Origin: an uncultured Bacteroidales bacterium
GTDB taxonomy: Bacteria; Bacteroidota; Bacteroidia; Bacteroidales; VadinHA17
Length of the DNA stretch: 64,000 nucleotides
Assembly: GCA_963730615.1 (NCBI GenBank)
Contig: CAVSSR010000010.1
Span: 479 to 64,478 of the forward strand
Direction: 5' to 3'
Shown here: positions 1 to 18,504 of the stretch, piece after piece
Position numbering within the stretch: the stretch's first letter is position 1
Layout of the letters: the number at the start of each line of letters is the position of its first letter
Translations under genes and position numbers: made by a program
Notes under the pieces: model-generated
The model's input: the letters and a program-made list of their open reading frames with translations, nothing else
The model's database searches: none
What the model was told of the DNA's origin: nothing

Positions 1-918
1 TAAACTATATGGGACAAAGGCCGGATTTATTGCATCCAGTGTATCTTTCTTAAACTGAGACAGAACGATCACGCCTGCTGCCCACTTTGCCAGCGGAGAA
101 AAAAACGGACGGTCAACGGCCAGACCCCTTGTGAAATTTCCATTCCCGTCAAAGCCATAATGAAGCTTTGCGTTTATCCAGGTGTTCCGGATATTCGGGA
201 TGAAATAATCAGTATTAAATGAATTAACACCGGTGATGAAATTCCTTGAAAAGGTATTTTGAAACTCATGACCTGATCCCAAAAAGTTAATGTCGGTTAT
301 GCTGGCGGTCATTCTTCTGTTTGAAGCAGTACCTGCCGGGGTTATGCTCCATCTGTCCAGTTCACGGATAAAGACATCTACTGAATCAGAATCTTCCCCG
401 GTTGCTATAATTGAAAAAGCGACGTCATGAACATATTTTTGTGCCCTGATCAGGCGCTCAGATTCCTTCACCAGCAGCGAATTGAAAGGTTGATTCTTAT
501 GGAAAAGCAGCAGGTTCCGGATGGCTAAACCACGTGTTTTTATATGCACTCCGTTTCCCGCCTTAAGCACAAAATTTTGGTTTGCAACAATCGTGTCAGT
601 TACCGAGTAACCAAAAGGATCGAAAGTCACAACGTTAATATTCCTGATGATTTTCCCTTCAAAGGTACCGTATGGCTTTTGTATCAGGTTTTTATATGTT
701 TTCTTCCTGACTGCTTTGTTCTTTGTTTCCGGGGTAACCGGTTTGAAGATCAGCCTGTAGACAAATGTTTTAAATTTGCTTTGTCTGGAATAGGTTTCAA
801 TATTTTTATAAAGGCTGGTGGAATCTGTTCTGACAGGTGTTTCCTGAGCACTTGCAGGATCACTTATTAAGAATGACAAAACAAAAAGCAAGAAAATATT
901 TTTGAGAGATACCTGCAT
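1..918 (-). CDS. Omp85 (BamA/TamA)-like outer-membrane protein, N-terminal part; gene continues past the left edge
   Basis: The minus-strand frame is open from ATG at 918-916 to position 1 (checked triplet by triplet). It is missing from the ORF track because it is truncated. N-terminus MQVSLKNIFLLFVLSFLISDPASAQ looks like a signal peptide, followed by a POTRA-like segment. It lies directly after mlaD in the same orientation. Confidence 0.5.
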   Translation of the reverse strand, partial: MQVSLKNIFLLFVLSFLISDPASAQETPVRTDSTSLYKNIETYSRQSKFKTFVYRLIFKPVTPETKNKAVRKKTYKNLIQKPYGTFEGKIIRNINVVTFDPFGYSVTDTIVANQNFVLKAGNGVHIKTRGLAIRNLLLFHKNQPFNSLLVKESERLIRAQKYVHDVAFSIIATGEDSDSVDVFIRELDRWSITPAGTASNRRMTASITDINFLGSGHEFQNTFSRNFITGVNSFNTDYFIPNIRNTWINAKLHYGFDGNGNFTRGLAVDRPFFSPLAKWAAGVIVLSQFKKDTLDAINPAFVPYSL

Positions 919-949
919 TTACCATTATTAATGTTTTATATCCTGGAGA

Positions 950-1708
950 TCATTTTTTCTTATCCTCAATTGCTTTTTGTTCACCTTCCTTTATTGCCAA
1001 AGAATCCTGAGTTGATTTTTCAGCTGCTTTTTCAGCTGCTTTTGCTTTCCTGTTGAAGTAACCTTTCAGAAGGAAATTCTCCTTGGCCGCATTCATGTTT
1101 TCATTTAATCCTTTGCTGCTGTTCTTGAGATTTATGATTGTCTTGTCAATATTCTCTGCAATTGTTGAATCCTGGATTAATCTCCCGAGTGTTCCGTTTC
1201 CACTGTTTATATTAACCATAATGTCTGCCAGCTGATATGAAATGATTGCGGCATTATCTGCAGTTATCTGCATACTTTCCATAATAGCATCTGATTCAAC
1301 AGGTTCTTTTGACCTGATGTACGCCCCTTCTTTTACTACGGGATTACCCTCGCTTCCCTGGGTAATGATTAAAATGCGGTCACCTATTATCCCTGCAGAA
1401 CCAATGCCTGCTTCACAATCACTTTTAATGAACTGCTGAACGCTTCTTTTTATTAACATATCAACGCGCACTGTTGTATCATTTATGATCCTGATGTCAT
1501 CAACAGTACCAACATTGATGCCTGAAAAACGGATATTACTTCCAGGCTCCAGCCCGCTTACATTATTGAAAGTTGTAGTGATTTTAAATACAGGATCGAA
1601 TAAGTTCTCCTGCTTTCCGATTATAAAAATGGCTATGACGAAAATCACCAACCCTCCTATAATAAAAAGCCCCAGCCTTACTTTGAATTTTTTTGTGTGC
1701 GTTTCCAT
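950..1708 (-). CDS. mlaD: MlaD/MCE-domain protein (lipid-asymmetry ABC transporter substrate-binding component)
   Basis: 252-aa ORF with an N-terminal TM helix followed by an MCE-type segment (FNNVSGLEPGSNIRFSGINVGTVDDI). It follows the ABC ATPase and permease genes. Confidence 0.8.
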   Translation of the reverse strand: METHTKKFKVRLGLFIIGGLVIFVIAIFIIGKQENLFDPVFKITTTFNNVSGLEPGSNIRFSGINVGTVDDIRIINDTTVRVDMLIKRSVQQFIKSDCEAGIGSAGIIGDRILIITQGSEGNPVVKEGAYIRSKEPVESDAIMESMQITADNAAIISYQLADIMVNINSGNGTLGRLIQDSTIAENIDKTIINLKNSSKGLNENMNAAKENFLLKGYFNRKAKAAEKAAEKSTQDSLAIKEGEQKAIEDKKK

Positions 1709-1715
1709 ATTATTA

Positions 1716-2492
1716 TCATTTAAAGAATGATTTTATTGATGTGTCAGTTGACTTTTCAAACTCGTCCAGTCCTCCCTCCTTATATACTTCGCCGTTGAGC
1801 AACATAATAATCCGGTTTGCAGTTGTCCGGGCACATTCAATATCATGTGTGATGATGATGGAAGAAGTTTTATATTTTTTCTGAACATCATTAATAAGGG
1901 TGCTTATCTCATCTGATGTAACAGGGTCAAGTCCTGTTGTCGGTTCATCATACAGCATTATCCTTGGATCAACGACAAGGGTTCGTGCCAGGCTTATCCG
2001 CTTACGCATTCCGCCTGATAATTGTGATGGCATTTTATTCAGGGCATCAGATAAACCAACATTTTCAAGAACTTCTTCCACTTTTTCGTTTATTTCTTTT
2101 TGATTAAGATTCTTTTTTATCCTTCGCAATGGAAATTCCAAATTTTGTCTTACGGTCATGGAATCATACAATGCGCCACTCTGAAAAAGAAAACCGATTT
2201 TCTTCCGCAACTCTCCTAACTCTTTCTGGTTCAGGGTACTCAGATCCTCTCCAAGGACCTTAATTGTTCCGTCATCGGGATCCAGTAAACGAACGATACA
2301 TTTTATCAGGACTGATTTTCCTGAACCTGATTTCCCGAGCACAACAAGATTTTCACCATTAAAAAGTTTCAGGGAAACATCTACCAGTACATCCTCTGTG
2401 CCAAATCCTTTCCTGAGGTTATTGATTTCAATAACCTGTTCAGGGCTTTCTGTTCTTGCAGGAACAACAGTTGCTGTTTGTGTAGCATTCAT
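1716..2492 (-). CDS. mlaF: ABC transporter ATP-binding protein, MlaF-like
   Basis: Walker A GKSGSGKS, ABC signature LSGGMRKR, Walker B IMLYDEP. Its start overlaps the end of the permease gene by 4 nt. Confidence 0.9.
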   Translation of the reverse strand: MNATQTATVVPARTESPEQVIEINNLRKGFGTEDVLVDVSLKLFNGENLVVLGKSGSGKSVLIKCIVRLLDPDDGTIKVLGEDLSTLNQKELGELRKKIGFLFQSGALYDSMTVRQNLEFPLRRIKKNLNQKEINEKVEEVLENVGLSDALNKMPSQLSGGMRKRISLARTLVVDPRIMLYDEPTTGLDPVTSDEISTLINDVQKKYKTSSIIITHDIECARTTANRIIMLLNGEVYKEGGLDEFEKSTDTSIKSFFK

Positions 2493-3325
2493 ATCATATC
2501 GGTGATTTGCACCGCAATTAAATCAAGAATTATCACCAGCAATGAGGACAGCACCACGGCTGAGTTTGCAGCAATACCCACACTCTCAGTCCCTCGTCCT
2601 GCCGTATATCCTTTATAGCATCCGACAAAACCGATCACTGCACCAAAAAAGAAGGTTTTGACAAGTGCCGGTATAAAATCAATAAATCCGATATGGCCGA
2701 ATGCCTGTGAGAAAAACAGGACAAAAGTCACATCTCCTCTTATATTTGCTCCGGCCCAGCATCCTAATATGCCCAGCGCATCGGCATATATTACCAATAA
2801 GGGTATCATCAGCGTAGCTGCCAGTACCCTTGTCACAACTAAAAATCTTATTGGATTGGTAGATGACACTTCCATGGCATCAATCTGTTCCGATACTCTC
2901 ATTGAACCCAGCTCTGCTCCCATGCCTGAACTGATTTTCCCGGCACATATCAAGGCAGTAATAACCGGCCCCATTTCTCTGATGAGAGATATTGTTACCA
3001 TTCCGGGAAGCAGGCTGACAGCCCCGAAGCTCAAAAGAGCAGGCCTCATCTGAATAGTAAGTACAAGGCCAATAATGAGCCCCGTTACTGAAATAAGCGG
3101 CAGTGTTTTATTTCCGACCTGAAAACATTGACGCAGGAACTCCTTAAATTCAAAGTTGCGCGAAAATGTTTCTTTTGTTACTCTTGTTATGAACAAGAAG
3201 GCATTGGCAATATTTGTCAGAAAGTTGCCTGCTTCAACGGTCTTTGCAATAGTTTTTTCGACGAGCCTTACAGATTGATCCGTTGCAATTTTTTTGACTT
3301 TAATAACAGGGCTTAGTATTTTCAT
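2489..3325 (-). CDS. mlaE: MlaE-family ABC transporter permease
   Basis: Multi-TM ORF of the MlaE/YrbE type. The ORF-track start at 3445 lies inside the promoter module P1, so I use the ATG at 3325 (MKILSPVIKV...). Confidence 0.8.
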   Translation of the reverse strand: MKILSPVIKVKKIATDQSVRLVEKTIAKTVEAGNFLTNIANAFLFITRVTKETFSRNFEFKEFLRQCFQVGNKTLPLISVTGLIIGLVLTIQMRPALLSFGAVSLLPGMVTISLIREMGPVITALICAGKISSGMGAELGSMRVSEQIDAMEVSSTNPIRFLVVTRVLAATLMIPLLVIYADALGILGCWAGANIRGDVTFVLFFSQAFGHIGFIDFIPALVKTFFFGAVIGFVGCYKGYTAGRGTESVGIAANSAVVLSSLLVIILDLIAVQITDMI

Positions 3326-3626: not shown

Positions 3627-4299
3627 ATGAAACAGTTAAGAATTGGTTTGATCATGATCGTAAGTACGGTTCTGATTTTATCCGGCTGCGCATCGTGGAA
3701 TAAAACCCAGAAAGGGGCTGTTGTCGGAACTGCCGCAGGCGGTGCAATGGGCGCCGTAATTGGCAGAGCCTCAGGCAACACTGCCCTGGGTGCAATAATC
3801 GGAGCTACAGTCGGTGGTGCCACGGGTGCGGTTATTGGCCATCAGATGGACAAACAGGCTGAGGAAATAAAGAATACCGTTCCTGATGCAACGGTTGAAC
3901 GCGTGGGTGAAGGAATAATTGTGGAATTCAACAGCAACGTTCTGTTTGGATTTGATCGAGTCGAATCTTTCGGATGATGCTAAGATCAGCCTTGACAAAC
4001 TGGTGAAAGTCCTTAATTCTTATGCCGATACGGATATTGAAGTGCAGGGTCATACCGACAGTAAAGGCAGTGTATCGTATAACCAGGCCCTGTCTGAAAG
4101 ACGGGCTAATGCAGTAACGGCTTATCTGGATGGAAAAGGTATATCGGCCGGTCGTTTAACAATTAAGGGATTTGGCGAAACTGCCCCAAAATATGAAAAT
4201 AAAACAGCAGAAGGCCGTACCGGAAACCGCAGGGTTGAGTTTTTGATCACTGCAAATGAGAAGATGAAAGCTGAAGCTGCAAAAGAAGCAGGCAAATAA
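3627..4299 (+). CDS. OmpA-family lipoprotein with Gly-rich N-terminal region; reading frame broken once near 3954-3962
   Basis: ORFs 3627..3977 and 3919..4299 join as ...NSNVLFGFD|ESNLSDDAKISLDKL... The first has a lipobox LILSGC and a glycine zipper. The second has the OmpA C-terminal motifs GHTDSKGS..YNQALSERRA..V and NRRVEF. The span of 673 nt is 3n+1, so one extra base. Confidence 0.8.
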
Positions 4300-4348
4300 T
4301 AATAACTAAGGTGAAACAATAAACTGACAATATAAATACTACAAGAAA

Positions 4349-5042
4349 ATGAAAACGAAATTATTAACTATATCTGCAATCCTTCTTTTTTCAACACTGG
4401 CTCTGCAGGCCCAGATTGGCTTCGGTCTTCTGGGGGGTGTGAATTTCCAGAATATAAACGGAAAAGAAAGTAATGGCGATAAACTCGAAAATGGTCTTTT
4501 GGTAGGGTTTCACGCCGGAGTAAATGCTAATATCCCGGTGGCACCTGACTTCTATTTTCAGCCCGGGCTTCTGTTCTCTGTAAAAGGCGCCAGGAATAAC
4601 TTCTTTAACATGCCTGTCAAAGCATCAGGATGACAATTATAATACAACCACAAAGATTTCCTATATCGAAATTCCCCTGAGCTTTCTGTACAGGCCACAG
4701 GTTGGAAACGGACATGTACTCCTCGGGTTTGGTCCTTATATTGCCTTTGGCATTGGCGGCAACCAGAAGTTTGAAAGCGGAACTCTGGCTTATGAACAAA
4801 AAATTGCCTTCAAAAACGAGATTACAGAGAGCGATTTTTTTGACCTGGATAATGCATATTTCAGGCGGTTTGATGCAGGGGCAAATATTTTCTTCGGCTA
4901 TGAAATACCGATGGGGGTATTCCTGCAGCTGAATGCGCAGCTGGGCATGCTTAAGATAAACCCTGTACATTCATGGGATAGCGGGGATGAGACCTCGTAC
5001 AAGAATACAGGTTACGGCCTTTCAATAGGATACCGTTTTTAG
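4349..5042 (+). CDS. Porin-family outer-membrane beta-barrel protein; frame broken once near 4626-4630
   Basis: ORF 4349..4633 has a signal peptide ending ALQAQ. It continues in another frame from 4629 as DDNYNTTTKISYIEIPLSFLYRP...GYGLSIGYRF*, with the stop at 5040-5042 and a typical terminal aromatic residue. The span of 694 nt is 3n+1; deleting one g of the gg at 4628-4629 restores the frame. Confidence 0.75.
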
Positions 5043-5065: not shown

Positions 5066-5095
5066 GGCCGTCACTGCAAAGTGACGGCCTTTTTT
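5066..5095 (+). terminator. Rho-independent terminator after the porin-family gene
   Basis: Stem GGCCGTCAC / GTGACGGCC with loop TGCAAA, followed by a T6 run. Confidence 0.8.
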
Positions 5096-5247: not shown

Positions 5248-5667
5248 GTGGATGAAAAAAACGTTATAATAACGAATCAAAGTATTAGTACAAACCTGAA
5301 CATCACAATCCGGTCAAGAGATGGTTCATCAGAGACCGGCAAGGCTAATGATGCTTTGTTTGCCGAAGGGGGACTGAACTTTTATAATTATATCAGACGG
5401 CTTGGCCTTGAAAGCGATCCTGATATAGTTGTTATTTCTTCCCTGCGCCATTTTTATTATGACGCTGAAGAAATGATTAAAGTTAAAGCCCTTGTGAACC
5501 TGACGGAACTCAACCAGGTTAAGCGGATTGTGGATTTTCTGCATACATGCTATCAGATTATGCCACAGAAGAGTTATTTAATCGGGTGTTTCGTTGATAA
5601 TAAGAAGATCCCCAGATACAGATTAAGAAACAACTCCGCCTCAACATATGTTCAAGAAAGATTTTGA
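5248..5667 (+). CDS. Hypothetical protein (GTG start), possibly truncated by frame errors
   Basis: 139-aa ORF directly downstream of module P3. I recognise no family with confidence. Confidence 0.5.
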   Translation: MDEKNVIITNQSISTNLNITIRSRDGSSETGKANDALFAEGGLNFYNYIRRLGLESDPDIVVISSLRHFYYDAEEMIKVKALVNLTELNQVKRIVDFLHTCYQIMPQKSYLIGCFVDNKKIPRYRLRNNSASTYVQERF

Positions 5668-5904: not shown

Positions 5905-6114
5905 TTACTTTTTAAAAGGAACCAATAACATGACTCCCCCAACCGCCATTACGGCAACGCCGATAAGTGGCGACCAGCTAACGTGGTGACGCTTGTTTGC
6001 GTTGATCTCTATGTTCCCTAAGTCAACCACTTTCTCTCTTGTAAAGTAAGTAACGGTCGTAAAAATGGTCAAAATCAGACCAAGGATTAAAATGATGATA
6101 CCAGGTTTTTTCAT
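5905..6114 (-). CDS. Small two-TM membrane protein (69 aa), hypothetical
   Basis: Two hydrophobic helices (GIIILILGLILTIFTTV and LIGVAVMAVGGVMLLV). It has its own module, P4, 50 nt upstream. Confidence 0.6.
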   Translation of the reverse strand: MKKPGIIILILGLILTIFTTVTYFTREKVVDLGNIEINANKRHHVSWSPLIGVAVMAVGGVMLLVPFKK

Positions 6115-6232: not shown

Positions 6233-7354
6233 TCAGGTTTTGGTTTTACCGCCCCCGGGAGTGTGTTTTTTAAAAGGTAATTTGATCTTAAGAGGAGATG
6301 GCATGGTATCTCCTAACAGGAAGCCCCAGGGCTTCAGAGGTTCGACGTGGTCACAGACAAGTTTTACAATGGCCAGCAGCGGTATGGAGATAAACATTCC
6401 GGGAATACCCCATATGGCATTGCCAACAAAAACTACCAGGAGTGAGAACAGTGCATTGAGTTTTACTTTTGAAGCAACTATTTTGGGAACGATGAAATTG
6501 TTGTCAATAAGCTGGATGATATAGTAGATCACCATAACATAAACGGGGTACCATGCAGATTCTTTTGTGATCAGGGCGACGATCATCGGCAATGCTACCG
6601 CAACTAATCCTCCTATGTAAGGAATGATATTCAGCAATGCGCCGATAATACCGAGCAGCAGAGCATATTCAATCCCGAGAGCCAGAAGAGCAACGGTGTT
6701 CAATGCAGCTATTATGCCAGCCTCAATAATCAGCCCGATAAGATATCGCTGAATAACTGTCTTTGTCTGAGTAACTATCTCGCTCACTTTGCTCTGGTTT
6801 CCTGAACTAAATATTCTATGAATAAACTCGATCAGGATCGGATTGTAAAACAAGAGCATAAAGACGTAAACCGGGATTAAAAAAATCACCACTAACAGGT
6901 TGCCGAGGGAGACAAGGGTGTTTCCGATCACAGCGCTGCTGGAATTAATAAGTTCACCCCGGACTTTTATAATCCAGTCATTTAACTTGTGAGAGTTTAT
7001 ATCGAAGTGGCCGGAAACCCAGGCGATGGCCTGGTTGAGCATCTCGCTGAATTTGTCTGCCAGCATGGGCAATGAATCACTTAAACGGCTTGCCTGCGAA
7101 ATGATAAGCGCACCAAATGCTGCTATGACCAGAAAGGTCAGGAACAGTGTTATGATGATTGCTAAAACTCTGTTGACTTTTTTCTCTACAAAGAAGTTTA
7201 CAACCGGATGAAGTACTATGGCTAAAATGGTTGCAAAAACCACAGGTACAAGGATGCTCCTCGCAATGTACAGCATTGTCAACAGAACAGCTATCCCGAT
7301 TAATAAAATGCTTGCCTTTACATACGCCGGAAGTTTCAGCCCTTCATTTGTCAT
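6233..7354 (-). CDS. AI-2E family transporter (PerM-like permease)
   Basis: 373-aa polytopic membrane protein with the typical AI-2E/UPF0118 layout. Confidence 0.75.
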   Translation of the reverse strand: MTNEGLKLPAYVKASILLIGIAVLLTMLYIARSILVPVVFATILAIVLHPVVNFFVEKKVNRVLAIIITLFLTFLVIAAFGALIISQASRLSDSLPMLADKFSEMLNQAIAWVSGHFDINSHKLNDWIIKVRGELINSSSAVIGNTLVSLGNLLVVIFLIPVYVFMLLFYNPILIEFIHRIFSSGNQSKVSEIVTQTKTVIQRYLIGLIIEAGIIAALNTVALLALGIEYALLLGIIGALLNIIPYIGGLVAVALPMIVALITKESAWYPVYVMVIYYIIQLIDNNFIVPKIVASKVKLNALFSLLVVFVGNAIWGIPGMFISIPLLAIVKLVCDHVEPLKPWGFLLGDTMPSPLKIKLPFKKHTPGGGKTKT

Positions 7355-7400
7355 GGCACCTGGATTGAAGTGTCACGGCTTCCGGATTTCAACTCTTTTC

Positions 7401-7772
7401 TTACGGAAAATACGGAGAAGCATAACTTCTCCCAGTGACCTGAGATTGCCGGATTGCTTTAGAGACAAAGTTAGTAACGCCGAGCTGTAAAACAGGACTG
7501 AGAAGTTTTCCAAACCTCATTGCGGTCACTCCTGGCAGTATACTCCTTGAAAGATACCCGGCACCTAAACCAAGGGCCGTTCCAAGGATGTTTTCAATCA
7601 GATTTGGCGATGAAGAAATATCATGTAATGTACTGCGGAGCAGACTGGCTGGTTTGAAACTTTCATAGGTGTTAACGAATTGCTCTTTCAACAGCTTTCT
7701 GTTGGCAGCCTTCTCTGCTTCCAGTAATTGAATTGCTTCTTTAAGGCCGGCTGTTGAAGTTATGTTTTGCAT
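7401..7772 (-). CDS. Hypothetical protein, third gene of the YtxH/holin-like cluster
   Basis: I use the ATG at 7772 (MQNITSTAGLKEAIQLLEAEK...). The longer ORF-track start overlaps the upstream gene. Confidence 0.55.
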   Translation of the reverse strand: MQNITSTAGLKEAIQLLEAEKAANRKLLKEQFVNTYESFKPASLLRSTLHDISSSPNLIENILGTALGLGAGYLSRSILPGVTAMRFGKLLSPVLQLGVTNFVSKAIRQSQVTGRSYASPYFP

Positions 7773-7779
7773 ACTGATT

Positions 7780-8133
7780 TTATTTAAGCACATGCCTGAT
7801 AATGTAATTGCCGACCTGTCTTTTGAGCCATTTATGCATAAAGAGACGTAAAACAAGAGTTGTGATCCCATAAAAAGCAGCTACCGCAAAAAAACCATAA
7901 TAGATATTACCAAGGATACCTCCCAGCCAGAAGGCAATGCCCAGGTTGACAAAAAGCATAAAAATCAAGGCCAGGACAATCACGATAAGATGAGGCACGA
8001 CTGTAGAAACAGCGTCCGATGTTTTATCAAGGACTTTAAGTTTAGCCAACTGAAGTTCCGTCTTGCCGTATTCAGTAACTTTCTCCAGCAGCTCCTCTAT
8101 GACTTTTACATTGTCTTCCATGCCCCTGGTCAT
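7780..8133 (-). CDS. Holin-X / phage-holin-family-like membrane protein
   Basis: 117 aa with an N-terminal amphipathic segment and two TM helices. It sits in the usual position after a YtxH gene. Confidence 0.6.
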   Translation of the reverse strand: MTRGMEDNVKVIEELLEKVTEYGKTELQLAKLKVLDKTSDAVSTVVPHLIVIVLALIFMLFVNLGIAFWLGGILGNIYYGFFAVAAFYGITTLVLRLFMHKWLKRQVGNYIIRHVLK

Positions 8134-8170
8134 AATATCATTAGTGATGATCTTATCCCCCTGACGGTTA

Positions 8171-8449
8171 TCAACCCGGAGCAGTCTTTGCTTTTTTGTC
8201 AGCCTCGTCTTTTGTCGTCTTGCCCTTATCAGTAAGATCAGTAACCTCTTCCTTTACATTTTCATATTTTTCAGATATGTCATCAAGAAACTGGTTGAAT
8301 TTTTCTTTCATTGATTCCTTCAGGTCATTTCCTTCTCCGGATAGCTTTTTTCGTGTTTCCGAGCCCTTTTCCGGGGCAAACAGAATCCCTAACACTGCAC
8401 CGGCAGCGACTCCGGCCAATAATGCCAATACTACTTTTCCTGAGCTCAT
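8171..8449 (-). CDS. YtxH domain-containing protein
   Basis: N-terminus VVLALLAGVAAGAVLGILFAPEKGSETRKKL is the YtxH signature. The C-terminal part is charged and helical. Confidence 0.85.
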   Translation of the reverse strand: MSSGKVVLALLAGVAAGAVLGILFAPEKGSETRKKLSGEGNDLKESMKEKFNQFLDDISEKYENVKEEVTDLTDKGKTTKDEADKKAKTAPG

Positions 8450-8470
8450 GATTTCTTTAATTTAATAAGC

Positions 8471-8560
8471 CCGCCCCGGATTATCCTGTTTTAAACCCCT
8501 TATATACTGATCAGTTTGTATTTCAGGTAGATGAAATGACACAGGAATTTTCCGGGGCGG
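8471..8560 (-). other. About 90-nt extended hairpin between the lmo0937-like gene and the YtxH gene
   Basis: A 10-bp GC stem (CCGCCCCGGA at 8471-8480 pairs with TCCGGGGCGG at 8551-8560) extends through CCTGT(8485-8489)/ACAGG(8541-8545). An inner TTTCA/TGAAA helix is also possible. Confidence 0.5.
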
Positions 8561-8589
8561 ACTTAATGATTACTAATAAAATGCTGGAT

Positions 8590-8745
8590 CTAGAGGATTC
8601 TTCTCCCCTGGATAACTCTCACTAAAACTGCAATGACTGCAATGACAAGCAGGATGTGTATCAGACCTCCGACATGGAACCCGATAAAGCCTACTGCCCA
8701 TGCAATGATCAGTATTACCGCAACTACATAAAGTAAATCTCTCAT
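8590..8745 (-). CDS. lmo0937-family small membrane protein (51 aa)
   Basis: Below the ORF-track size cut-off. Hand translation gives MRDLLYVVAVILIIAWAVGFIGFHVGGLIHILLVIAVIAVLVRVIQGRRIL, which matches the typical lmo0937/DUF5670 pattern. Confidence 0.8.
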   Translation of the reverse strand: MRDLLYVVAVILIIAWAVGFIGFHVGGLIHILLVIAVIAVLVRVIQGRRIL

Positions 8746-8763
8746 GATTTTGTTTTTTAATTT

Positions 8764-11045: not shown

Positions 11046-11051
11046 TGTAAT

Positions 11052-11765
11052 TCAAGCGGTTGCCTTCTTTTGCTTTAGTTTTTGTTTTAATGCAGTTTCG
11101 ACCAGCTTATGTTTGGCGATTTCATTCACCAGTTTTTTATTGGTTTTCTTTAATTTATTTATTTCTACTTCAAGATCAATCTTTTTATCAATAAGTTGCA
11201 TGCGCAAACGCTGTATTACATCTAATTTCTTTTCCAATAAGAGGGATAATTCAAGAAGCTTTTTTTCTTCCTTCTTCATTTCTGATATGTCAGTTGCTAC
11301 AAGTATGCAATAATCACCTTGCAGATAAGCAGGTAAAAGCTGAATGGATAGTTTCAGATATAATGAGTTGATCAGGGATACTATCAGAACATTATTTTTA
11401 TTATCAGTCTGTTGAGCAAGCAATTTATCAAATTTTGATTTATCATTCGGAACGATGAAACGCTTAAAGTATGAACCAATCACACGCTCAATTGGTTCGT
11501 GCACAAGTTCAGCAAATCTCTGATTACAATAGATAATTATACCTTCTCTGGAAAGAGTAACTGCTCCTTCGTTCATTTCTTCTATGAAAGTACGATATGG
11601 TGTTTCAGCAGAACTGATTGAATAGACTTGTTCTCCTTTCGTACCAGAAACCACAATCGCATCCACTTCACCGCTTCGAATTGCTGAAAGCGTTTCTTCA
11701 GTTTCAGCCAGGCGGGAATGTAATTCTTCATTCTCAATAATGAGTTGTTCTTTTGTTTTGGTCAT
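11052..11765 (-). CDS. PAS-domain protein flanked by coiled coils, with no recognisable output domain
   Basis: N-terminal coiled coil, a PAS-like core (EGAVTLSREGIIIYCNQRFAELV...) and a long Lys/Leu-rich C-terminal coiled coil. It is the last gene of the kai cluster. Confidence 0.7.
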   Translation of the reverse strand: MTKTKEQLIIENEELHSRLAETEETLSAIRSGEVDAIVVSGTKGEQVYSISSAETPYRTFIEEMNEGAVTLSREGIIIYCNQRFAELVHEPIERVIGSYFKRFIVPNDKSKFDKLLAQQTDNKNNVLIVSLINSLYLKLSIQLLPAYLQGDYCILVATDISEMKKEEKKLLELSLLLEKKLDVIQRLRMQLIDKKIDLEVEINKLKKTNKKLVNEIAKHKLVETALKQKLKQKKATA

Positions 11766-11810
11766 TGACGTTATTATAATAAATCAAATGTGCTAAAATT
11801 CCTGAAAATC

Positions 11811-12164
11811 TTACAGGTCTTTTACCTTTTTCAGGTCTAATCCCATAAGTACTTTTTCTTTGTTTGACATATCGCCAATAATACGACGGAATGGAAGCGG
11901 CAGTTTTTTAATCAATGTCGGGGCTGCAATTATCTGTTCATCTTTTGCCAAACTTGGCATTTGATACAGGTCAATCACTTCCAGTTCGTATCGCCCTTCA
12001 AGATATTCTTCGCAAATCTTTTTCAGGTTCGTAATGGCTAAGACCGATCGACTCGTTGTACCGGTTATGTATAAACGCAAAATATATTTGTCCTTGCCCG
12101 ATTCAGACATTGTCAGATCAAACTCTTTTGTTGATCCTTTTACTTTTGTTTTTTTCTCTTTCAT
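11811..12164 (-). CDS. kaiB: KaiB-family protein with Lys-rich N-terminal extension
   Basis: [74 protein letters not shown] is a clear KaiB pattern. Confidence 0.9.
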
Positions 12165-12195
12165 AATTATGACTGATAAATATTGTATTTATAAA

Positions 12196-12462
12196 TCAGC
12201 TGACAGGCAATAAATCCAATCCGACAAGAACACGTTCTGTATCTGAGAGATCACCTATTATCTTACGAACAGGTACCGGCAATTTTCTTACTAATGTTGG
12301 TAAGGCAAGAATCTGGTCCTCGTTACCCAACTGTGGATTTATCAAAAGGTCAATTACTTCAATGGAGTATTTCCCTTCTAATTGTTCTTCACATATTTTT
12401 TTCAGATTTGCAAATGCAGTAAGGGCTTTTGGAGATTGTCCTGCAACATATAAACGAAGCAC
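12196..12462 (-). CDS. kaiB: KaiB-family protein (GTG start as given; true start possibly the ATG at 12538, reached through a frame error)
   Basis: [72 protein letters not shown]. Confidence 0.9.
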
Positions 12463-12585
12463 CCACTTATCATTTGCCGTTATTAACCGGTTTTTCTTTT
12501 TTAATTTTTTTATCTGAATTTTCTTTCTTTGGTTTCATCGGATACTCGTTTTAATTATTTTTTCAATTTGCTGGTTGTACTATTT

Positions 12586-14290
12586 TTAATGATCAGCTTT
12601 TCTGCTTACTGCCATTTCTATTTTATCCTGTTCCAGTCGTTTAATCATGTCTTGTTCTGTTTCTATCATTTTAACAGCTTCGGATTCTTCCGACTCAAAA
12701 TCGGCATGCAATGAAGCAATCTGAGCTTCTAATGCCTTGCGTTTTCGTTCTAGTTCACGTTTTTTTCGTTCAATATCCTGCTTACGCGTCAACACTTCGG
12801 CATTTTCAAGAGCTTCCTGTGCAATACGGGCTGAGCCGGTTAAAACTCCACTGGCACCAATATAAACCTCACGTAATTCTACACCGTGGTCAGTTAAAAT
12901 GAATTCGCGAATCTGGTTAGAGTTAGCCATTCCGCGCGATTTAAGAACATACATTCCCCTGTTTCGTTCACCGTTTAATTCTATATCACGAAGTAATAAC
13001 CAGGTATCTATCAGTGATGATATTCCGACATCAGAACTCTCCAATGCGCTTTCGGTTGAAGTCAGGCTGGTAAACAATGCTGTTATTTGATTCGACTTAA
13101 GAAAATCGACAATACGCATTAACATCGTTTTTACTTCGATCTCTTTATCACCAATGACGAAAGTATTTATTGGATCCAGAATAACAATATCAGGTTTGAA
13201 AGCATTTACAGCTTTGTGAGTTACAGCCAGATGCATTTCCAGACCATAAAATGTTGGCCGGGTTGCCTGGAATTGTAAAAGTCCTTTCTGCACCCAGGGC
13301 TCTAATTTTATACCGATGGAAAGCATATTACGCATTAAGCTGGTTTGGAGATTCTTCGAAACAGAAATAAAGAACACGTTCACCTCTTTTACATGCTGCT
13401 TCTGCAAAGTGAGCTGCAACACTTGTTTTTCCTACTCCGGCAGTACCGGAAACAAGTACAGTGCTGCCGCGGTAATAACCTTTTCCTTCAAGCATTTTAT
13501 CAAGTGCAGTTATACCACTTGAGATTCTTTTGTTTGATACAATATGTTCTAATCCTAAGGAAGTTACAGGTAATACTGAAAAACCATTTTCATCAATCAG
13601 AAACGGATACTCATTGGTACCGTGCATTGAACCACGGTACTTTACAACCCGTAAACGACGTGTGGAAGTCTGTTCGGTTACACGATGGTCGAGCATAATA
13701 ACACAATCTGAAACATATTCTTCCAAACCCTGCCTGGTAAGAGTTTCTTCTCCACGCTCACCTGTTATGATTGCAGTAACACCTTTTTCTTTTAACCAGC
13801 GAAATAACCGCCGCAGTTCAGCGCGTAGGATCAGTTGGTTTGGCAATCCGGCAAACAGTGATTCAATAGTGTCCAAAACAACACGCTTTGCTCCAATAGA
13901 ATCAATTGCATAATCAAGGCGTATGAATAAACCTTCCAGATCGTATTCACCGGTTTCTTCTATTTCACTGCGCTCAATATGAACATGGTCAAGTGCAATT
14001 TTTTTATTTTTAATAAGGTCTTCCAGATCAAAACCCAGTGAAGCAACATTTTTGATTAATTCTTCATTGGTTTCTTCGAATGACATAAATACACCCGGTT
14101 CGTTAAACTGAGTTGCACCACGTACAAGAAACTCCATTCCAAAAAGTGTCTTTCCGCATCCTGCACCACCACATACGAGGGTTGGTCTGCCTGCTGGTAA
14201 TCCACCGCCTGTTATTTCATCAAATCCCTGAATTCCGGTGGGAGACTTGAGAAGATTTTTATTTACTGGTTTACGGTCTGCTTTTTTCAT
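12586..14290 (-). CDS. kaiC: KaiC-family double-domain ATPase with C-terminal coiled-coil tail; frame broken once near 13335
   Basis: ORFs 13328..14290 and 12586..13422 join as ...FEESPNQL|MRNMLSIGIKLEP... Walker A motifs: GGAGCGKT in the CI half and GTAGVGKT in the CII half. The span of 1705 nt is 3n+1; removing one t of the tt at 13335-13336 restores the frame. Confidence 0.9.
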
Positions 14291-14465
14291 TGATTATCAA
14301 TTAAATAAAGTCATATCAGATTATAGGCGATATGTTGCTAAACAACAAGTACTTAATTCCGGCCTTTTCTGGTCAGTATGATCCTCCAACCCTGGTCAAA
14401 GTCAATTATAATTCTGATCAGTCTTGTATTGTTAAAAAGCCAGACTACCCAGGTTAAACCTGACA

Positions 14466-14609
14466 CTAGGCTAATTTATAAATCAAATAAATAATAGAAC
14501 CCAATACTAAACATACGCACATTGAAAGGCTGTAGGCCATCAAAATGGCATATTTTAGCTTTGATCTGGCTTTCAAGTCCTCAGTAAATAAATCATCCCT
14601 TGTTTTCAT
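14466..14609 (-). CDS. Small membrane protein (47 aa), first cistron downstream of module P6
   Basis: Below the ORF-track cut-off. Base-by-base hand translation gives MKTRDDLFTEDLKARSKLKYAILMAYSLSMCVCLVLGSIIYLIYKLA with a TAG stop at 14466-14468. The ATG lies 44 nt after the -7 box, in the same range as the other modules. Confidence 0.5.
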   Translation of the reverse strand: MKTRDDLFTEDLKARSKLKYAILMAYSLSMCVCLVLGSIIYLIYKLA

Positions 14610-14652: not shown

Positions 14653-14721
14653 CAAAGTTGAAATCCTTTACTCTGAGAAACTTTACAAAATTTCAGGAAA
14701 AAGTTACATCATTCACACATC
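14653..14721 (-). promoter_or_regulatory. Composite promoter module P6 (drives the small ORF and probably kaiC-kaiB-kaiB-PAS-M1 peptidase)
   Basis: AGATGTGTGAATGATGTAAC-N15-TGTAAA-N21-CAACTTTG. The distal end overlaps the stop codon (14713-14715) of the AraC-family gene. Confidence 0.6.
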
Positions 14722-15273
14722 TTCCAGAGCCCGGGGTTTTTTGTTCTTCAGTTTTTTAAACTGGGACGGAGTAAGCCCTGTCATTTTCCTGAACTGGTTT
14801 GAAAGGTGGGCTACACTGCTGTAGTGCAGTTTCCAGGCTATTTCGGTGAGATTAAGTTCATCATATATTAGCAGTTCCTTTACCTTTTCGATTTTGTGCG
14901 CCAGGTAAAACTTCTCAATGGTAACCCCCTTTACTTCTGAAAAAAGATTTCCCAGATAGGTGTAATTGTGATTGAGTTTTTGGCTCAGGTGGTCGGAAAG
15001 GTTTATTTTGATCTGCTCATCGGTATTATGCACCAGGTCAATGATGACTGCTTTTATTCTTTCAACCAGGATGTTCTTTTTGTCCTGCATCAGTTCAAGC
15101 CCGGTCTTTTTAAGTGCAATTGCGAGGTTTTCGCGCTGCTCCGGTGAAATATCCTCCGTTATTTCAGCTTCGCACAATTCAACTGATCCATAATGCAAAC
15201 CCGCCTTTTCCAGCTCCGATTTTACCAGCATTATGCAACGGAGGCTGACCATATTTTTGATGTAGAGTTTCAA
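14713..15273 (-). CDS. AraC-family transcriptional regulator
   Basis: C-terminal HTH region LTEIAWKLHYSSVAHLSNQFRKMTGLTPSQFKK, with a small N-terminal alpha/beta domain. Confidence 0.85.
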   Translation of the reverse strand: MKLYIKNMVSLRCIMLVKSELEKAGLHYGSVELCEAEITEDISPEQRENLAIALKKTGLELMQDKKNILVERIKAVIIDLVHNTDEQIKINLSDHLSQKLNHNYTYLGNLFSEVKGVTIEKFYLAHKIEKVKELLIYDELNLTEIAWKLHYSSVAHLSNQFRKMTGLTPSQFKKLKNKKPRALEDV

Positions 15274-15304: not shown

Positions 15305-15334
15305 CAAATTTAAGATTTTTTCTGAAAGACCAAA
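15305..15334 (-). promoter_or_regulatory. Canonical Bacteroidota sigma-A-type promoter of the AraC-family gene
   Basis: On the minus strand, TAAATTTG (plus-strand CAAATTTA at 15305-15312) lies 31 nt before the ATG. A TTTG (plus-strand CAAA at 15331-15334) lies 18 nt upstream. There is no TGTGAAT/TGTAAC module here. Confidence 0.4.
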
Positions 15335-15695: not shown

Positions 15696-16271
15696 TCAGA
15701 GTACTACCCTTGTATTATGGCCAAAAAGGTAAAACAGGCCAAACTGAATTCCCCTGTTGGTTGATTTTACTTCACTGCTTTTATTTATATCGTTTAATCC
15801 GTGATTATATCTCAGATCAAGACCAAACCCCGTTGAAGGAACCACATAGCTGACACCAACACTTAATGCAAAGTCAATGGGGTTATAATCATTCTCATTG
15901 TCTGAACTGACCAGGAAACCTACCTGTGGTCCGGCCTGTATTCTGAATCCGTTGTCAAACATATATTGAATCAGGACAGGTATATTAATATAACCCAGAT
16001 TATAATTTTTTGCACCCTGGGCGGAATATACAAGTTCAGGCTGAATTGCCCACTGACTGTTGCGGTGGATATGGCCAAGCAAACCAAAATTATAACCTGT
16101 TCTCTGGTCATAACTGGTATTGTTGTCATTGTGAATGTTATAAAAATTCAGCCCGCCCTTAATTCCAAGGGTTACGTGTCCTGCAGGTGCATTGCCGTGC
16201 TGTGCACTGACAACACCCGTTATCATAATTGCTGTAATTAATCCGATCAGAAATTTCATAGCTTTTTTCAT
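15696..16271 (-). CDS. Porin-family outer-membrane beta-barrel protein
   Basis: Signal peptide MKKAMKFLIGLITAIMITGVVSAQ, beta-strand-rich sequence and a C-terminal ...FGLFYLF-type motif. The ORF-track start at 16325 lies too close to the -7 box of P7, so I use the ATG at 16271. Confidence 0.75.
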   Translation of the reverse strand: MKKAMKFLIGLITAIMITGVVSAQHGNAPAGHVTLGIKGGLNFYNIHNDNNTSYDQRTGYNFGLLGHIHRNSQWAIQPELVYSAQGAKNYNLGYINIPVLIQYMFDNGFRIQAGPQVGFLVSSDNENDYNPIDFALSVGVSYVVPSTGFGLDLRYNHGLNDINKSSEVKSTNRGIQFGLFYLFGHNTRVVL

Positions 16272-16417: not shown

Positions 16418-16484
16418 CCTGTGAATTATGTAATTATGTTGATGAAAAGTGTAACGGTTCCGCTGGCTTAGCTGCCTACCTTTG
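16418..16484 (+). promoter_or_regulatory. Composite promoter module P8 (drives small membrane protein 16550..16774)
   Basis: CCTGTGAATTATGTAAT-N15-TGTAAC-N21-TACCTTTG. The box ends 65 nt before the ATG at 16550. Confidence 0.6.
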
Positions 16485-16549
16485 CTTTGTTGAAGGGCAC
16501 CTCCCGCAATAACAATTAATGCAAAAAATAAACTTATAAGGAGAAAATC

Positions 16550-16774
16550 ATGAGCACAAGAAGAGACAGAAGAATAATCTACTATTTAATTGCAGCTGCA
16601 GTTATTATTATTGCCTTCCTGTTTGTTAGGCGGTGCATCCTGGATGAAAGGGATGGGACATGGCAACGGTTCAATGGGTACGGTCAGTTTACACTGGGGA
16701 CAGATTCTGATCAGCCTGGGTCTGGGGTTTCTGCTCGGGTGGATAGTCTCCAAAAGGAAATGGTGATTGTCTGA
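16550..16774 (+). CDS. Small single-TM membrane protein (74 aa), hypothetical
   Basis: MSTRRDRRIIYYLIAAAVIIIAFLFVRR..., with its own module P8. Confidence 0.55.
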   Translation: MSTRRDRRIIYYLIAAAVIIIAFLFVRRCILDERDGTWQRFNGYGQFTLGTDSDQPGSGVSARVDSLQKEMVIV

Positions 16775-16787
16775 TTACCTTCAGACT

Positions 16788-18413
16788 TCAAATGGGCAGG
16801 TCTTTAAAAATTACTTCAGACCTGCCAATCGAGTCTTCCATTTTCTTATTGCCGTCAGCCAGGGTTGAAGTAATTCCTGAAAGAATAGATCTGAAGCAGT
16901 AATGCAAAACAGATCTTTCAGGGTCTCTTATATAATCTATTGTACCCTCTCTGACGTCTCCCCCCTGTACAGGGTTTGAATCTGGTATTCTTCTGTTAGC
17001 TATATAAGAGACAAATCTTTCTCTGAATGCTGTTGTATCATCAGTCTGTTTGTTCTTAACAGCGATGTCCAGTCCATGATAAAGCATGATCATTTTGCCT
17101 GTTGCCTTGTCATTATTTGCAATGAAGCTGAAACTCAATGCATCGATTTTGCCGGAAGTGGCATAAATAAAGGCATTTTTCTCAAGGATTGGATTTAACT
17201 CAGTAACGTTCAGGCCTGATAGAGTTCCTTCAAGTGAAAATATATTATTACTGTCAAATATTCTCTCTTTTAAATGAACGGCCATCTTTCCTTTGCCCAT
17301 TAACAGGGCATCAGCCTTGATTTCTAAAAAACCTTTTTCTGTTTTGTAGCTGGTGTCATTTGTTAATTTGTAAAGGCTGGCATTGATTTCATTAAATCTT
17401 ACAATTCCTGGCTCGTTTGCCTCTTCAGCATGTACTGTAAAAGTTACATTCCCTTTCATAAGAATTATTGAATCAATCAGGAAGTTGTGGGGAAAGTCGT
17501 AAAGGATATCCTGAAAGGCGGGTTTATTCAAATGCCGGAACTCTTCTCTCTTATCACGAAAAACTTTCATGTCCATTTGCCCGATCTCTATATACGGACT
17601 TCTGAGGCTCATTGATCTGAGATAAGCTTCGGAATCGAAATCGTAAACATAAATGTCGGTTAAGGCAACTTCGATACGGTTCGTTTGGAATGCATGTCTC
17701 GATGTGAAATCATAGTTTGTGTAATTCGGGCGAACAAAAAGGCTGTCTATGAACAAAGTGTTCACATTGGCAGGATAGCTGACCCCCTTTACCACATAAG
17801 AATACATTTTGTCAGACGAAACCAGCATGAGTTCCCGGGCTTTGAAATCAAACAGCTTAATGGTACCGGGGAGTAAAGTATCCATCTTCCCGACCTGCAA
17901 ATCGTATACTTTCAGCATCCCATCCTTTACTGAATAAGTCTGCCCCGTTGAATCGTCTTCCAATTCCAGGTTCAGTTTATCAAACAGGATTCTGCCTATG
18001 CCAAGACTTATGGGTGAAACTACCGGTTGTGTTGCTCTGCCCGAAAATGGAAATTTACCGTTAATAATGCTATTGGAAAAGTTTACTTTATTAATATAAA
18101 TATCATGTTTAAATATTGCTCTGGGGAGGTTGATGCCTGTCAACTTTACAGACGCTATCTCACCGATTAAATCGCGGTCTACTCCATTCTCCGGATTTGA
18201 AAATATTGTCATTCCTGTCAGTTTTATCCCTGACTTGATAATCAAAATATTAACCTTATCTATTTCAACGATGTAATTTCTTGCTTCTTTATTCAATTCT
18301 GACCGTATTTTTCCCCCGATCCAGGGCTCAATAAAAATTCTGGTTATAATTTCTACCAGCAACAAAAGAGTACACGCTGCAACAAATATTTTTAAAATTA
18401 TTTTCTTCCGCAT
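16788..18413 (-). CDS. Large membrane-anchored hypothetical protein (possibly AsmA/DUF748-like)
   Basis: 541 aa with an N-terminal TM anchor followed by a beta-rich region. The family assignment is only an impression from the N-terminal region. Confidence 0.5.
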   Translation of the reverse strand: MRKKIILKIFVAACTLLLLVEIITRIFIEPWIGGKIRSELNKEARNYIVEIDKVNILIIKSGIKLTGMTIFSNPENGVDRDLIGEIASVKLTGINLPRAIFKHDIYINKVNFSNSIINGKFPFSGRATQPVVSPISLGIGRILFDKLNLELEDDSTGQTYSVKDGMLKVYDLQVGKMDTLLPGTIKLFDFKARELMLVSSDKMYSYVVKGVSYPANVNTLFIDSLFVRPNYTNYDFTSRHAFQTNRIEVALTDIYVYDFDSEAYLRSMSLRSPYIEIGQMDMKVFRDKREEFRHLNKPAFQDILYDFPHNFLIDSIILMKGNVTFTVHAEEANEPGIVRFNEINASLYKLTNDTSYKTEKGFLEIKADALLMGKGKMAVHLKERIFDSNNIFSLEGTLSGLNVTELNPILEKNAFIYATSGKIDALSFSFIANNDKATGKMIMLYHGLDIAVKNKQTDDTTAFRERFVSYIANRRIPDSNPVQGGDVREGTIDYIRDPERSVLHYCFRSILSGITSTLADGNKKMEDSIGRSEVIFKDLPI

Positions 18414-18436
18414 GATATGGCATTATAGTCAGAGGT

Positions 18437-18504
18437 CAAAACTATTACACCCTGACTTCAAAACTTTACACAATTCAATAAATGATTTACATCATTCACG
18501 CATT
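18437..18504 (-). promoter_or_regulatory. Composite promoter module P9 (drives 16788..18413)
   Basis: TAATGCGTGAATGATGTAAA-N15-TGTAAA-N20-TAGTTTTG. The box lies 24 nt before the ATG at 18413. Confidence 0.55.

Follow-up and report, generated by a model that had tools for sequence, protein, structure and literature searches.

We analyzed a 64,000-nucleotide (nt) stretch of DNA from an uncultured Bacteroidales bacterium of the VadinHA17 lineage (assembly GCA_963730615.1, contig CAVSSR010000010.1, positions 479 to 64,478), hereafter called the window. Its left end carries an island of genes for lipid transport, outer-membrane barrels, small membrane proteins and KaiBC proteins. Nine copies of one 70-bp promoter module are found in this island, all within positions 3381–18504, and the remaining 45 kb of the window is without any. 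The island also encodes an AraC-family protein that is considered here as a candidate regulator of the module.

Nine copies of one promoter module

The original prediction, made from the sequence alone, had placed nine modules in the island, and all nine are borne out by core matches, by a gap-free alignment and by matrix scores relative to shuffled sequence. A search for direct repeats recovered 43-nt copies at 3407, 6189, 14678, 16354 and 18461, together with a reverse-strand family at 3509, 5137 and 16420. The core TGTGAATNATGTAAT, with 0–2 mismatches, is present nine times, always within 3432–18500, and the remaining 45 kb contains just two weaker matches with two mismatches. This number of matches was reached in none of 100 shuffles. 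When oriented to the neighboring gene, the nine copies align without gaps over ∼75 nt. Every module faces a downstream open reading frame (ORF), which lies 91–150 nt from the module start.

A matrix derived from the nine window sites finds no further site of at least 12 bits in the whole 64 kb. An independent matrix, for which only sites of other genomes were used and in which the −7 box was included, recovers eight of the nine at 39.8–67.9 bits, and the highest score over 200 block shuffles of the window is 9.2 bits. The sole copy missed by this second matrix is P5 (9243), and only because the distance between its two boxes is 1 nt longer; its distal box is perfect. Compared with its orthologue in L001, a locus of a related genome, P5 carries one extra base (an indel at ∼9219).

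Nine near-identical copies within 15 kb might be taken for a small mobile or recombinogenic repeat, or for a transcribed RNA element, that has no role in initiation. The G+C content of the island (0.39–0.42 over positions 1–18000), which is below that of the housekeeping flank (0.45–0.51 over 18000–64000), could be read in the same way. We give this explanation almost no credence, since it is effectively refuted by the orientation and conservation of the copies. Each one points to a gene at a narrow distance, orthologous positions are kept where the flanks have diverged to 87–90% identity or much less, and there are no terminal inverted repeats. Moreover, the copies lie upstream of the −7 box and so are not transcribed. 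A search of positions 1–20000 against Rfam at the gathering threshold yielded 0 matches, indicating that the module is not a catalogued RNA motif.

Table 1. Promoter modules, transcription units and other features of the island
Feature	Positions	Strand	First base in gene direction	Score (bits)	Remarks
Module P1	3381..3450	−	3450	67.9	−7 box CAACCTTTG; upstream of mlaE-mlaF-mlaD and BamA-like gene
Module P2	3505..3574	+	3505	65.3	back to back with P1, 54-bp gap; upstream of Gly-zipper/OmpA lipoprotein and barrel porin
Module P3	5133..5202	+	5133	51.9	upstream of hypothetical gene 5248–5667
Module P4	6163..6232	−	6232	58.4	abuts AI-2E stop codon; upstream of 69-amino-acid (aa) membrane protein
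Module P5	9173..9243	−	9243	35.4	upstream of anchored 109-aa protein, DUF5670, probably YtxH to AI-2E; score from the window-site matrix, those of the other modules from the independent matrix
Module P6	14652..14721	−	14721	62.0	upstream of 47-aa ORF, probably kaiC-kaiB-kaiB-PAS-M1
Module P7	16328..16397	−	16397	46.5	upstream of barrel porin 15696–16271
Module P8	16416..16485	+	16416	39.8	back to back with P7, 18-bp gap; −7 box TACCTTTG at 16477–16484; upstream of 74-aa protein
Module P9	18435..18504	−	18504	46.4	−7 box TAGTTTTG at 18437–18444; upstream of 541-aa anchored protein
P1 unit	1..3325	−			mlaE 2489–3325; ABC ATPase 1716–2492; mlaD 950–1708; BamA-like gene from 918 off the left window end
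P2 unit	3627..5042	+			Gly-zipper/OmpA lipoprotein 3627–4299; OMP_b-brl_2 barrel 4349 to ∼5042; both frameshifted
Intrinsic terminator	5066..5089	+			GGCCGTCACTGCAAAGTGACGGCC then TTTTTT; strong; ends P2 unit
P3 unit	5248..5667	+			hypothetical 139-aa protein
P4 unit	5905..6114	−			69-aa membrane protein with two transmembrane segments
P5 unit (putative extent)	6233..9093	−			anchored 109-aa protein 8764–9093; DUF5670 8590–8745; YtxH 8171–8449; holin-X-like 7780–8133; hypothetical 7401–7799; AI-2E transporter 6233–7354
P6 unit (putative extent)	9291..14609	−			47-aa membrane ORF 14466–14609; kaiC (split) 12586–14290; kaiB 12196–12462; kaiB 11811–12164; PAS protein 11052–11765; M1 peptidase 9291–11045
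Candidate regulator gene	14713..15273	−			186-aa AraC-family protein; TTG start
Promoter of AraC gene	15305..15334	−			ordinary Bacteroidetes sigma-A type, TTTG-N18-TAAATTTG
P7 unit	15696..16271	−			OMP_b-brl_2 barrel porin
P8 unit	16550..16774	+			74-aa membrane protein
P9 unit	16788..18413	−			541-aa N-terminally anchored protein, no family match

Genes and transcription units of the island

The gene content assigned earlier to the island is recovered by Pfam, which identifies MlaE, an ABC ATPase, MlaD, Gly-zipper and OmpA domains, two OMP_b-brl_2 barrels, AI-2E, a holin-X-like protein, YtxH, DUF5670, an M1 peptidase, PAS, two KaiB proteins, KaiC and HTH_18/AraC. Searches of the hypothetical proteins at 5248, 5905, 7401, 8764, 14466, 16550 and 16788 with NCBIfam and Pfam gave no match. 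The P3-unit gene at 5248 belongs to orthologous families that stand downstream of modules in five other loci among the matches listed.

The P1 unit is tight, with overlaps or gaps of at most 31 nt throughout. Its Mla genes form an operon (MlaE, 1.3e-68; ABC_tran, 2.7e-35; MlaD, 2e-17) in which they overlap or lie 7 nt apart. The gene that had been called omp85-like at the end of this unit shows only a weak BamA match (E = 4e-5) that is far below the curated cut-off. The terminator proposed to close the P2 unit is present (Table 1).

Three genes are units of the island as predicted but are not intact in this assembly. The ompA gene is split by a frameshift near 3950 (3627–3977 and 3919–4299), the first barrel gene is broken by a frameshift (4349–4633 onward, with the indel at ∼4633), and kaiC is split into 13328–14290 and 12586–13422 with one extra base near 13335 relative to the intact L001 orthologue. 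KaiC is intact in relatives, with 577 aa in L001 and 577–580 aa across L001 and L003, and the latter also holds intact orthologues of both P2-unit genes (223 and 228 aa). In the window, the Pfam KaiC ATPase domain is found on both kaiC halves, and two KaiB genes accompany them. Essential genes are split in the same window: rpoB into 33193–34605 and 34896–37004 (470 + 702 aa), and tuf into 40216–40917 and 40814–41404 (233 + 196 aa). Because rpoB and tuf are also split, the ompA, porin and kaiC splits are probably assembly indels, and real pseudogenization of these three genes was judged unlikely.

The extents given for the P5 and P6 operons are putative. Within the P5 unit, the 140-nt gap between DUF5670 and YtxH contains no −7 box. 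Read-through across it is plausible because the same gene order is kept, with small gaps, behind a single module in L125, L127 and L128. The gap does hold a long-range inverted repeat, CCGCCCCGG ... CCGGGGCGG at 8470–8553 (−), with ∼60 nt enclosed, which might serve as a structure for partial termination or for the processing or stability of the RNA. A second observation in this unit is a −7-like box, TAACTTTG at 7466–7473 (−), located inside the hypothetical gene ∼110 nt upstream of the AI-2E start, that may be an internal promoter. In the P6 unit, a 175-nt leader separates the 47-aa ORF from kaiC, and KaiC is the first long ORF behind the module in L003 and L052.

Anatomy of the module and the class of promoter

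The organization of the module was derived from an alignment of 241 non-identical sites from 123 loci, in which columns 61–68 were not used in site selection. Read in gene direction, the order is AATG-TGTGAAT-n-ATGTAAY-T, ∼9 variable nt, AATTr-TGTAAC, ∼21 variable nt and (T)A-c-C-TTTG. The distal box is a 20-bp asymmetric sequence of high information (AATGTGTGAATnATGTAAYT) located at approximately −73 to −54. The proximal box (AATTrTGTAAC, approximately −44 to −34) is a weaker direct copy whose TGTAAC lies at approximately −39 to −34. Columns 8–19 (AATnATGTAAYT) are repeated as columns 29–40 (AATTrTGTAAcA) with an offset of exactly 21 bp, which makes a tandem direct repeat spaced by two helical turns. 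The distal copy has in addition the 5′ extension AATGTGTG.

Columns 61–68 contain A in 90% of the sites, TTT in 97%, 96% and 82%, and G in 59%, all in fixed register. This is a −7 box of the form (T)AnCTTTG, and its versions in the window include CAACCTTTG, CTACCTTTC, TCATCTTTG and TACCTTTG. The corresponding Bacteroidetes element lies at −12 to −5 in Flavobacterium (PMC9723704). The module therefore has the Bacteroidetes sigma-A −7 box TAnnTTTG, but the −33 TTTG expected ∼20 bp upstream of it is absent, and the position is taken by the conserved proximal TGTAAC in the 241 sites. The fact that a tandem box sits at the −33 position, with an ordinary −7 box at a fixed distance, leads us to read the module as an activator-dependent sigma-A promoter rather than as an alternative-sigma promoter. 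The original prediction had invoked a special promoter common to the island. The shared module stands, but a new promoter class does not, since what precedes the normal sigma-A −7 box is a tandem repeat of activator type in place of the −33 element. A generic sigma-70 promoter scan gave 52 matches versus 49 expected and is uninformative for Bacteroidota.

The sequence TGTAAC resembles the GAAC/GTAAC-type −35 boxes of extracytoplasmic function (ECF) sigma factors. The module might thus be an alternative, ECF-type promoter with TGTAAC as its −35 element, which would imply sigma replacement as in sigma-B and EcfG responses. The absence of the canonical −33 TTTG would be accounted for, as would a gene content that mirrors the sigma-B and EcfG regulons. 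However, ECF promoters combine a (G)GAAC-like −35 box with a CGT-type −10 box 16–17 bp downstream, and no conserved −10 box follows TGTAAC at this distance: columns 44–60 carry no information in the 241 aligned sites. The conserved sequence that does lie downstream is the −7 box of housekeeping promoters, (T)AnnTTTG, with the spacing of sigma-A, and conservation reaches approximately −73, far past any sigma contact. Furthermore, no sigma, anti-sigma or partner-switching gene is present among the recurring families of at least 120 motif loci or among the genes of eight regulator-anchored loci, a count that covers the loci and not whole genomes. An ECF-type promoter is thus very unlikely.

A CRP/FNR-type palindrome (TGTGA-N6-TCACA) was also considered as a description of the distal box. 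It was rejected on the grounds that the conserved ATGTAA would fall in the spacer and that the site is asymmetric. In addition, no cyclic nucleoside monophosphate-type regulator was recognized among the enriched gene families of the motif loci.

Two variations occur outside the window. About 10% of module promoters elsewhere carry a palindrome, (T)GTGAAAAT-N3-4-ATTCAC(A), just after the −7 box (columns 73–95), where the transcript is expected to start. Carriers include L005, L006, L009, L029, L042, L052, L076, L089, L092 and L116, and the palindrome was not seen in the nine modules of the window. One possible role is that of a second operator and another that of a 5′ hairpin, in either case marking a sub-regulon (ice-binding-like proteins, CsbD and others). 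Locus L014 carries the motif variant TATGAAT.

The module across Bacteroidota

A scan of 185,579 species genomes with the pattern TGTGAATNATGTAA-N16-17-TGTAA gave at least 120 loci, each of which is an 8-kb slice of a multi-megabase genome. Among the matches listed, all but a handful of the loci are labeled Bacteroidota. The lineages represented include Bacteroidales, Chitinophagales, Cytophagales, Flavobacteriales and Saprospiraceae, and culturable carriers are found among isolates of Ferruginibacter (sp. SUN106), Carboxylicivirga (sp. RSCT41), Lacihabitans (sp. LS3-19) and Arcicella (A. aquatica LMG 21963). Three contigs binned as Woesearchaeota or Saccharibacteria (L094, L111 and L120) also carry the module, and L120 encodes an AraC homologue with 63% identity. 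Mis-binning of contigs from Bacteroidota is the most likely explanation.

A matrix scan of the loci yielded at least 228 sites. Among the matches listed, two or more sites occur within 8 kb in 62 of 119 motif-derived loci, and 21 divergent pairs are arranged back to back like P1/P2 and P7/P8. The tight clustering that had been regarded as unusual is thus widely shared. Sites are also found on several contigs of one metagenome-assembled genome in other genomes, which suggests that the regulon is probably not confined to an island. The orientation to genes is likewise retained among these matches: an ORF lies downstream of 217 of 242 sites, and the distance from the module start to the first ATG-initiated ORF of at least 40 aa has a median of 109 nt (interquartile range 101–136).

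The first downstream genes fall into recurrent families, for which we give the number of sites among the matches listed: ice-binding-like proteins with a type IX secretion system tail (at least 14), OmpA/Gly-zipper proteins (at least 13), the anchored ∼109-aa protein and DUF5670 (at least 10 each), CsbD (at least 9), AraC paralogues (at least 8), and barrel porins and radical-SAM proteins (at least 6 each). Smaller groups comprise Thivi_2564-like peptides, KaiC, YtxH, MlaE, M48 peptidase, BrkB and superoxide dismutase (SOD). Frequent neighbors are Usp (in at least 8 loci), a P-type ATPase, GH130 with a glycosyltransferase, and PAS hybrid kinases. CsbD, YtxH, Usp and small membrane stress proteins are characteristic content of general-stress regulons, and YtxH and DUF5670 are encoded in the window itself. 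The likeness to such regulons noted in the original prediction is therefore sustained across Bacteroidota, where modules precede genes for CsbD, YtxH, DUF5670/lmo0937-like proteins, OmpA/Gly-zipper proteins and SOD.

The comparison with related genomes that had been proposed as a check shows the same module with the same geometry before orthologous genes in L001, L003 and L125–L129. L001, with 87–90% DNA identity to the window, contains the same island with modules at orthologous places and keeps the gene order of the P5 unit. The gene order DUF5670-YtxH-AI-2E follows the AraC-gene module in L125–L129, and in most genomes this operon occupies the position directly behind the regulator gene. 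The kai operon is found at that position only in one sub-lineage, which consists of the window, L001, L003 and L052.

Several differences among these loci were observed. In L001, trkA and trkH (7172–9707) lie between the barrel-porin and AraC genes, whereas the window has ∼150 unalignable bases at 15380–15533, which amounts to a gain or loss of sequence within the island. In many genomes, the operon formed by the AraC gene, module, DUF5670, YtxH and AI-2E is extended by GH130 and a glycosyltransferase of ∼740–790 aa (L002 16165–19606, L125 13756–17152, L127 13814–17057, L128 13975–17212), genes that may make a compatible solute. The L127 operon then adds BrkB and a P-type ATPase. Neither extension is present in the island of the window. 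At L002 3753–4661, a 189-aa paralogue of the AraC protein is followed ∼90 nt past its stop codon by a module before an Fe/Mn SOD gene with a signal peptide.

A second conserved cluster contains an AraC paralogue (174–189 aa), a PAS hybrid histidine kinase, a stand-alone receiver and CsbD (L126 14632–18722, L129 5758–9843, L044 528 onward). Modules precede the paralogue in L129 and L044, and they precede CsbD in L126 and L129. This arrangement suggests a phosphorelay input or a regulatory cascade.

An AraC-family protein as candidate regulator

The AraC gene had been singled out as the only unit with an ordinary promoter. Indeed, the only complete TTTG-N17-21-TAnnTTTG in the intergenic regions of positions 1–19000 is the one in front of this gene (Table 1). 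The encoded protein has thousands of homologues at 72–97% identity, and all whose source is named are from Bacteroidota.

The gene and the module are physically coupled. Module P6 starts 6 nt before the AraC stop, and its first 9 nt (GAT GTG TGA) constitute the last two codons and the stop codon. The module is located exactly 6 nt before the stop in 16 of 33 AraC homologue genes, where AAT/GAT-GTG/ATG-TGA encodes N/D-V/M-stop. In another 10 of the 33, it lies upstream of the start, ∼95 nt away in six. When loci were fetched by protein identity (n = 8), the module was found at the AraC stop in seven and 79 nt after the stop in one. The closest homologues end in N or D followed by V or M in 98 of 120 cases, and the surrounding tail is variable and predicted to be disordered, with a predicted local distance difference test (pLDDT) score below 50. 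Conservation of these two residues in a variable, disordered tail points to selection on DNA rather than on protein.

The C-terminal domain is an AraC/XylS-type domain with a pair of helix-turn-helix (HTH) motifs, as judged from Pfam matches (HTH_18, 5.2e-17; HTH_AraC, 2.9e-07) and PDB sequence matches to AraC-type domains. The predicted model (pLDDT 88.7) consists of a beta-alpha-beta-beta-alpha-beta N-domain (residues 1–62), a linker helix and a seven-helix AraC-type domain that superposes on MarA, SoxS, AraC, Rob and AdpA. The N-domain model matches Atx1, HAH1 and GolB weakly (E ∼0.1, target-normalized TM 0.6–0.68) and Pfam HMA gives no match, so the HMA-like fold is a prediction from the model only. 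HMA domains are characterized by a metal-binding GMxCxxC loop. Among 120 homologues, a loop of this domain carries CxxC in 87 (M-V-C-x-R-C), SxxC in 11 and TxxC in 6 (17 with S/T-x-R-C, the window protein among them), and the second cysteine is invariant.

The layout of the module, with an asymmetric site of ∼20 bp and a tandem repeat beside the −35 region, is that of AraC-type sites, which are asymmetric, span ∼17–20 bp and are often arranged as tandem direct repeats, and this makes the module a candidate operator for such a protein. The AraC-family protein is likely to be the regulator that reads the module and is the best candidate. AraC homologues are encoded in 28 of 120 motif-derived 8-kb loci among the matches listed, and no other DNA-binding family is enriched among the recurring gene families of at least 120 loci.

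Alternatively, the module could be a genuine shared operator of a different, unlinked factor, and the AraC gene could be a mere conserved neighbor or a target. An AraC paralogue does lie downstream of the module, and hence is a target, in 10 of 33 cases, and PAS hybrid histidine kinases and receivers are even commoner neighbors (37 loci among the matches listed). Several features speak against this scenario. A distal site that is asymmetric and 20 bp long, in a tandem layout of 21 bp, suits a two-HTH AraC-type domain, the regulator and the motif are conserved together across orders, and in the whole family the stop codon of the regulator gene lies within the operator. Together with the lack of any other enriched DNA-binding family near the sites, these features make an unlinked factor unlikely, though less so than an ECF sigma factor.

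A proposed mechanism

If the AraC-family protein reads the module, then the HMA-like/AraC protein made from its ordinary promoter would be the activator. Two copies of the protein would occupy the tandem sites. By analogy with XylS, AraC and RhaS, the promoter-proximal copy would replace the −33 contact and recruit sigma-A RNA polymerase in class II style. Because the regulator gene has an ordinary promoter here, control is probably post-translational, with activity gated through the N-terminal HMA-like domain. The invariant second cysteine of the N-domain suggests that a redox or metal cue is a possible signal, which might act through a redox- or metal-bridged change.

The same protein could instead bind the module as a repressor or anti-activator of promoters that are otherwise constitutive. 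Some AraC-family members do repress, and part of the stretch with which RNA polymerase has to make contact is covered by the proximal site. Yet promoters without a −33 element should be weak unaided, and the sites are upstream of or abut the core promoter rather than covering the start site or the −7 box. An arrangement in tandem direct repeats is also that of known activators. We consider repression about as improbable as an ECF-type promoter.

Several points weigh against the activator model. First, the AraC gene may belong to the regulon, as its conserved first member or as a target, instead of regulating it, and co-localization cannot separate these readings. Second, the proximal site is weak in its 5′ half, and the box spacing of P5 is 22 bp versus 21 bp. 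Third, the conservation of this module across a phylum exceeds what is usual for sites of the AraC family. Fourth, the window protein has SxxC in its N-domain loop, with the first cysteine replaced by serine, so a two-cysteine metal site is not a universal sensor. Finally, the genome scan was seeded with the motif itself, and the taxonomic range and target list are samples, not a census. With these points taken into account, we still judge it reasonably probable that the nine modules are activator-dependent sigma-A promoters and together form a local copy, fragmented to an unusual degree, of a stress regulon that is conserved across Bacteroidota, with the AraC protein as activator.

A broader and more tentative possibility, which we hold to be less probable than the activator model itself, is that this system is a master switch for general stress or dormancy in Bacteroidota. 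To our knowledge, no equivalent of RpoS, sigma-B or EcfG has been described in this phylum. The activator, small and nearly invariant in the phylum, would sense a redox or metal cue through the invariant cysteine, perhaps dimerize by a cysteine or metal bridge, occupy the tandem sites and drive the whole stress set. Besides functions for envelope remodeling (Mla, OmpA and porins), this set would comprise the small membrane stress proteins, CsbD, Usp and SOD, as well as genes for compatible solutes. A KaiBC timer would also be switched on in some lineages, and it could return time or energy information to the response.

Comparison with known systems

In its mechanistic kind, the proposed system would be an AraC/XylS-type class II activator system whose targets overlap those of the sigma-B and EcfG regulons without an alternative sigma factor. 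XylS makes contact with RNA polymerase and recognizes a pair of 15-bp direct repeats, both of which have a box A and a box B (PMC5481539). The present system resembles XylS/Pm, AraC/pBAD and class II RhaS promoters in having a two-HTH C-domain, tandem repeats with two sub-boxes and a 21-bp period, and a promoter-proximal site that abuts or overlaps the −35-equivalent element. The combination of a strong distal site with a weaker proximal one is also found in AraC I1/I2. In contrast to these activators, the putative sensor is a ∼65-aa HMA-like ferredoxin fold and not a cupin or sugar-binding domain, the polymerase carries Bacteroidetes sigma-A with its −33/−7 elements, and the targets are a broad, phylum-wide stress set rather than a catabolic operon. 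The putative operator also overlaps the stop codon of the regulator gene.

The proposed system would share with MarA, SoxS and Rob a small AraC-family activator with a dispersed stress regulon and a 20-bp asymmetric box, and its C-domain superposes on theirs. The marbox layout, with a 4-bp element near positions 4–7 and an A-rich element near 15–19, recurs in both box types, but there is no sequence similarity between the module box and the marbox. MarA and SoxS are monomers with a single domain, and it is through their synthesis that they are controlled, whereas the protein described here has a predicted sensor domain, is made from an ordinary promoter in the window genome and would have two tandem sites at each target promoter.

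The targets are like those of sigma-B in Bacillus and Listeria, EcfG/PhyR in Alphaproteobacteria, and RpoS, as they comprise CsbD, YtxH, DUF5670/lmo0937, Usp, OmpA-like proteins and SOD. PMC11109978 (its reference 76) cites csbD as under sole sigma-B control, and lmo0937 is named in papers on the Listeria sigma-B regulon, as seen from their titles and term counts. Unlike those responses, the present loci contain no gene for an alternative sigma, anti-sigma or partner-switching protein, and the housekeeping −7 box is kept. As for KaiBC outside cyanobacteria, a double-domain KaiC, two KaiB proteins and a PAS protein are likewise encoded in one operon. The difference is that here the kai operon would be a target located directly behind a regulator gene, an arrangement restricted to one sub-lineage.

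Significance of the putative regulon

No description of the motif, of the regulator subfamily or of a Bacteroidota general stress regulon was found in the full-text literature, with subscription literature not covered. PMC11109978 and PMC9723704, two papers close to the subject, likewise make no mention of the motif or the regulator. The system thus looks like an undescribed, phylum-wide stress regulon. Its apparently new features are the unusual predicted sensor domain, the putative operator in the regulator's stop codon, the replacement of the −33 element and the conservation throughout the phylum. What appears new in the lineage of the window is an unusually fragmented island of nine separately promoted units, including the putative KaiBC operon.

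Bacteroidota dominate soils, sediments, oceans and guts. Little is known of how they respond to stress on a global scale, and their promoters are not of the textbook type. The findings supply a precise 70-bp cis-element, a named candidate regulator and a list of target families, among them several without a known function, so that the question becomes directly testable. The culturable carriers among the scan matches allow such testing. Annotators could use the module to predict regulon membership for many small uncharacterized membrane proteins, and the module and its candidate activator may offer a natural inducible promoter/regulator pair for Bacteroidota genetics.

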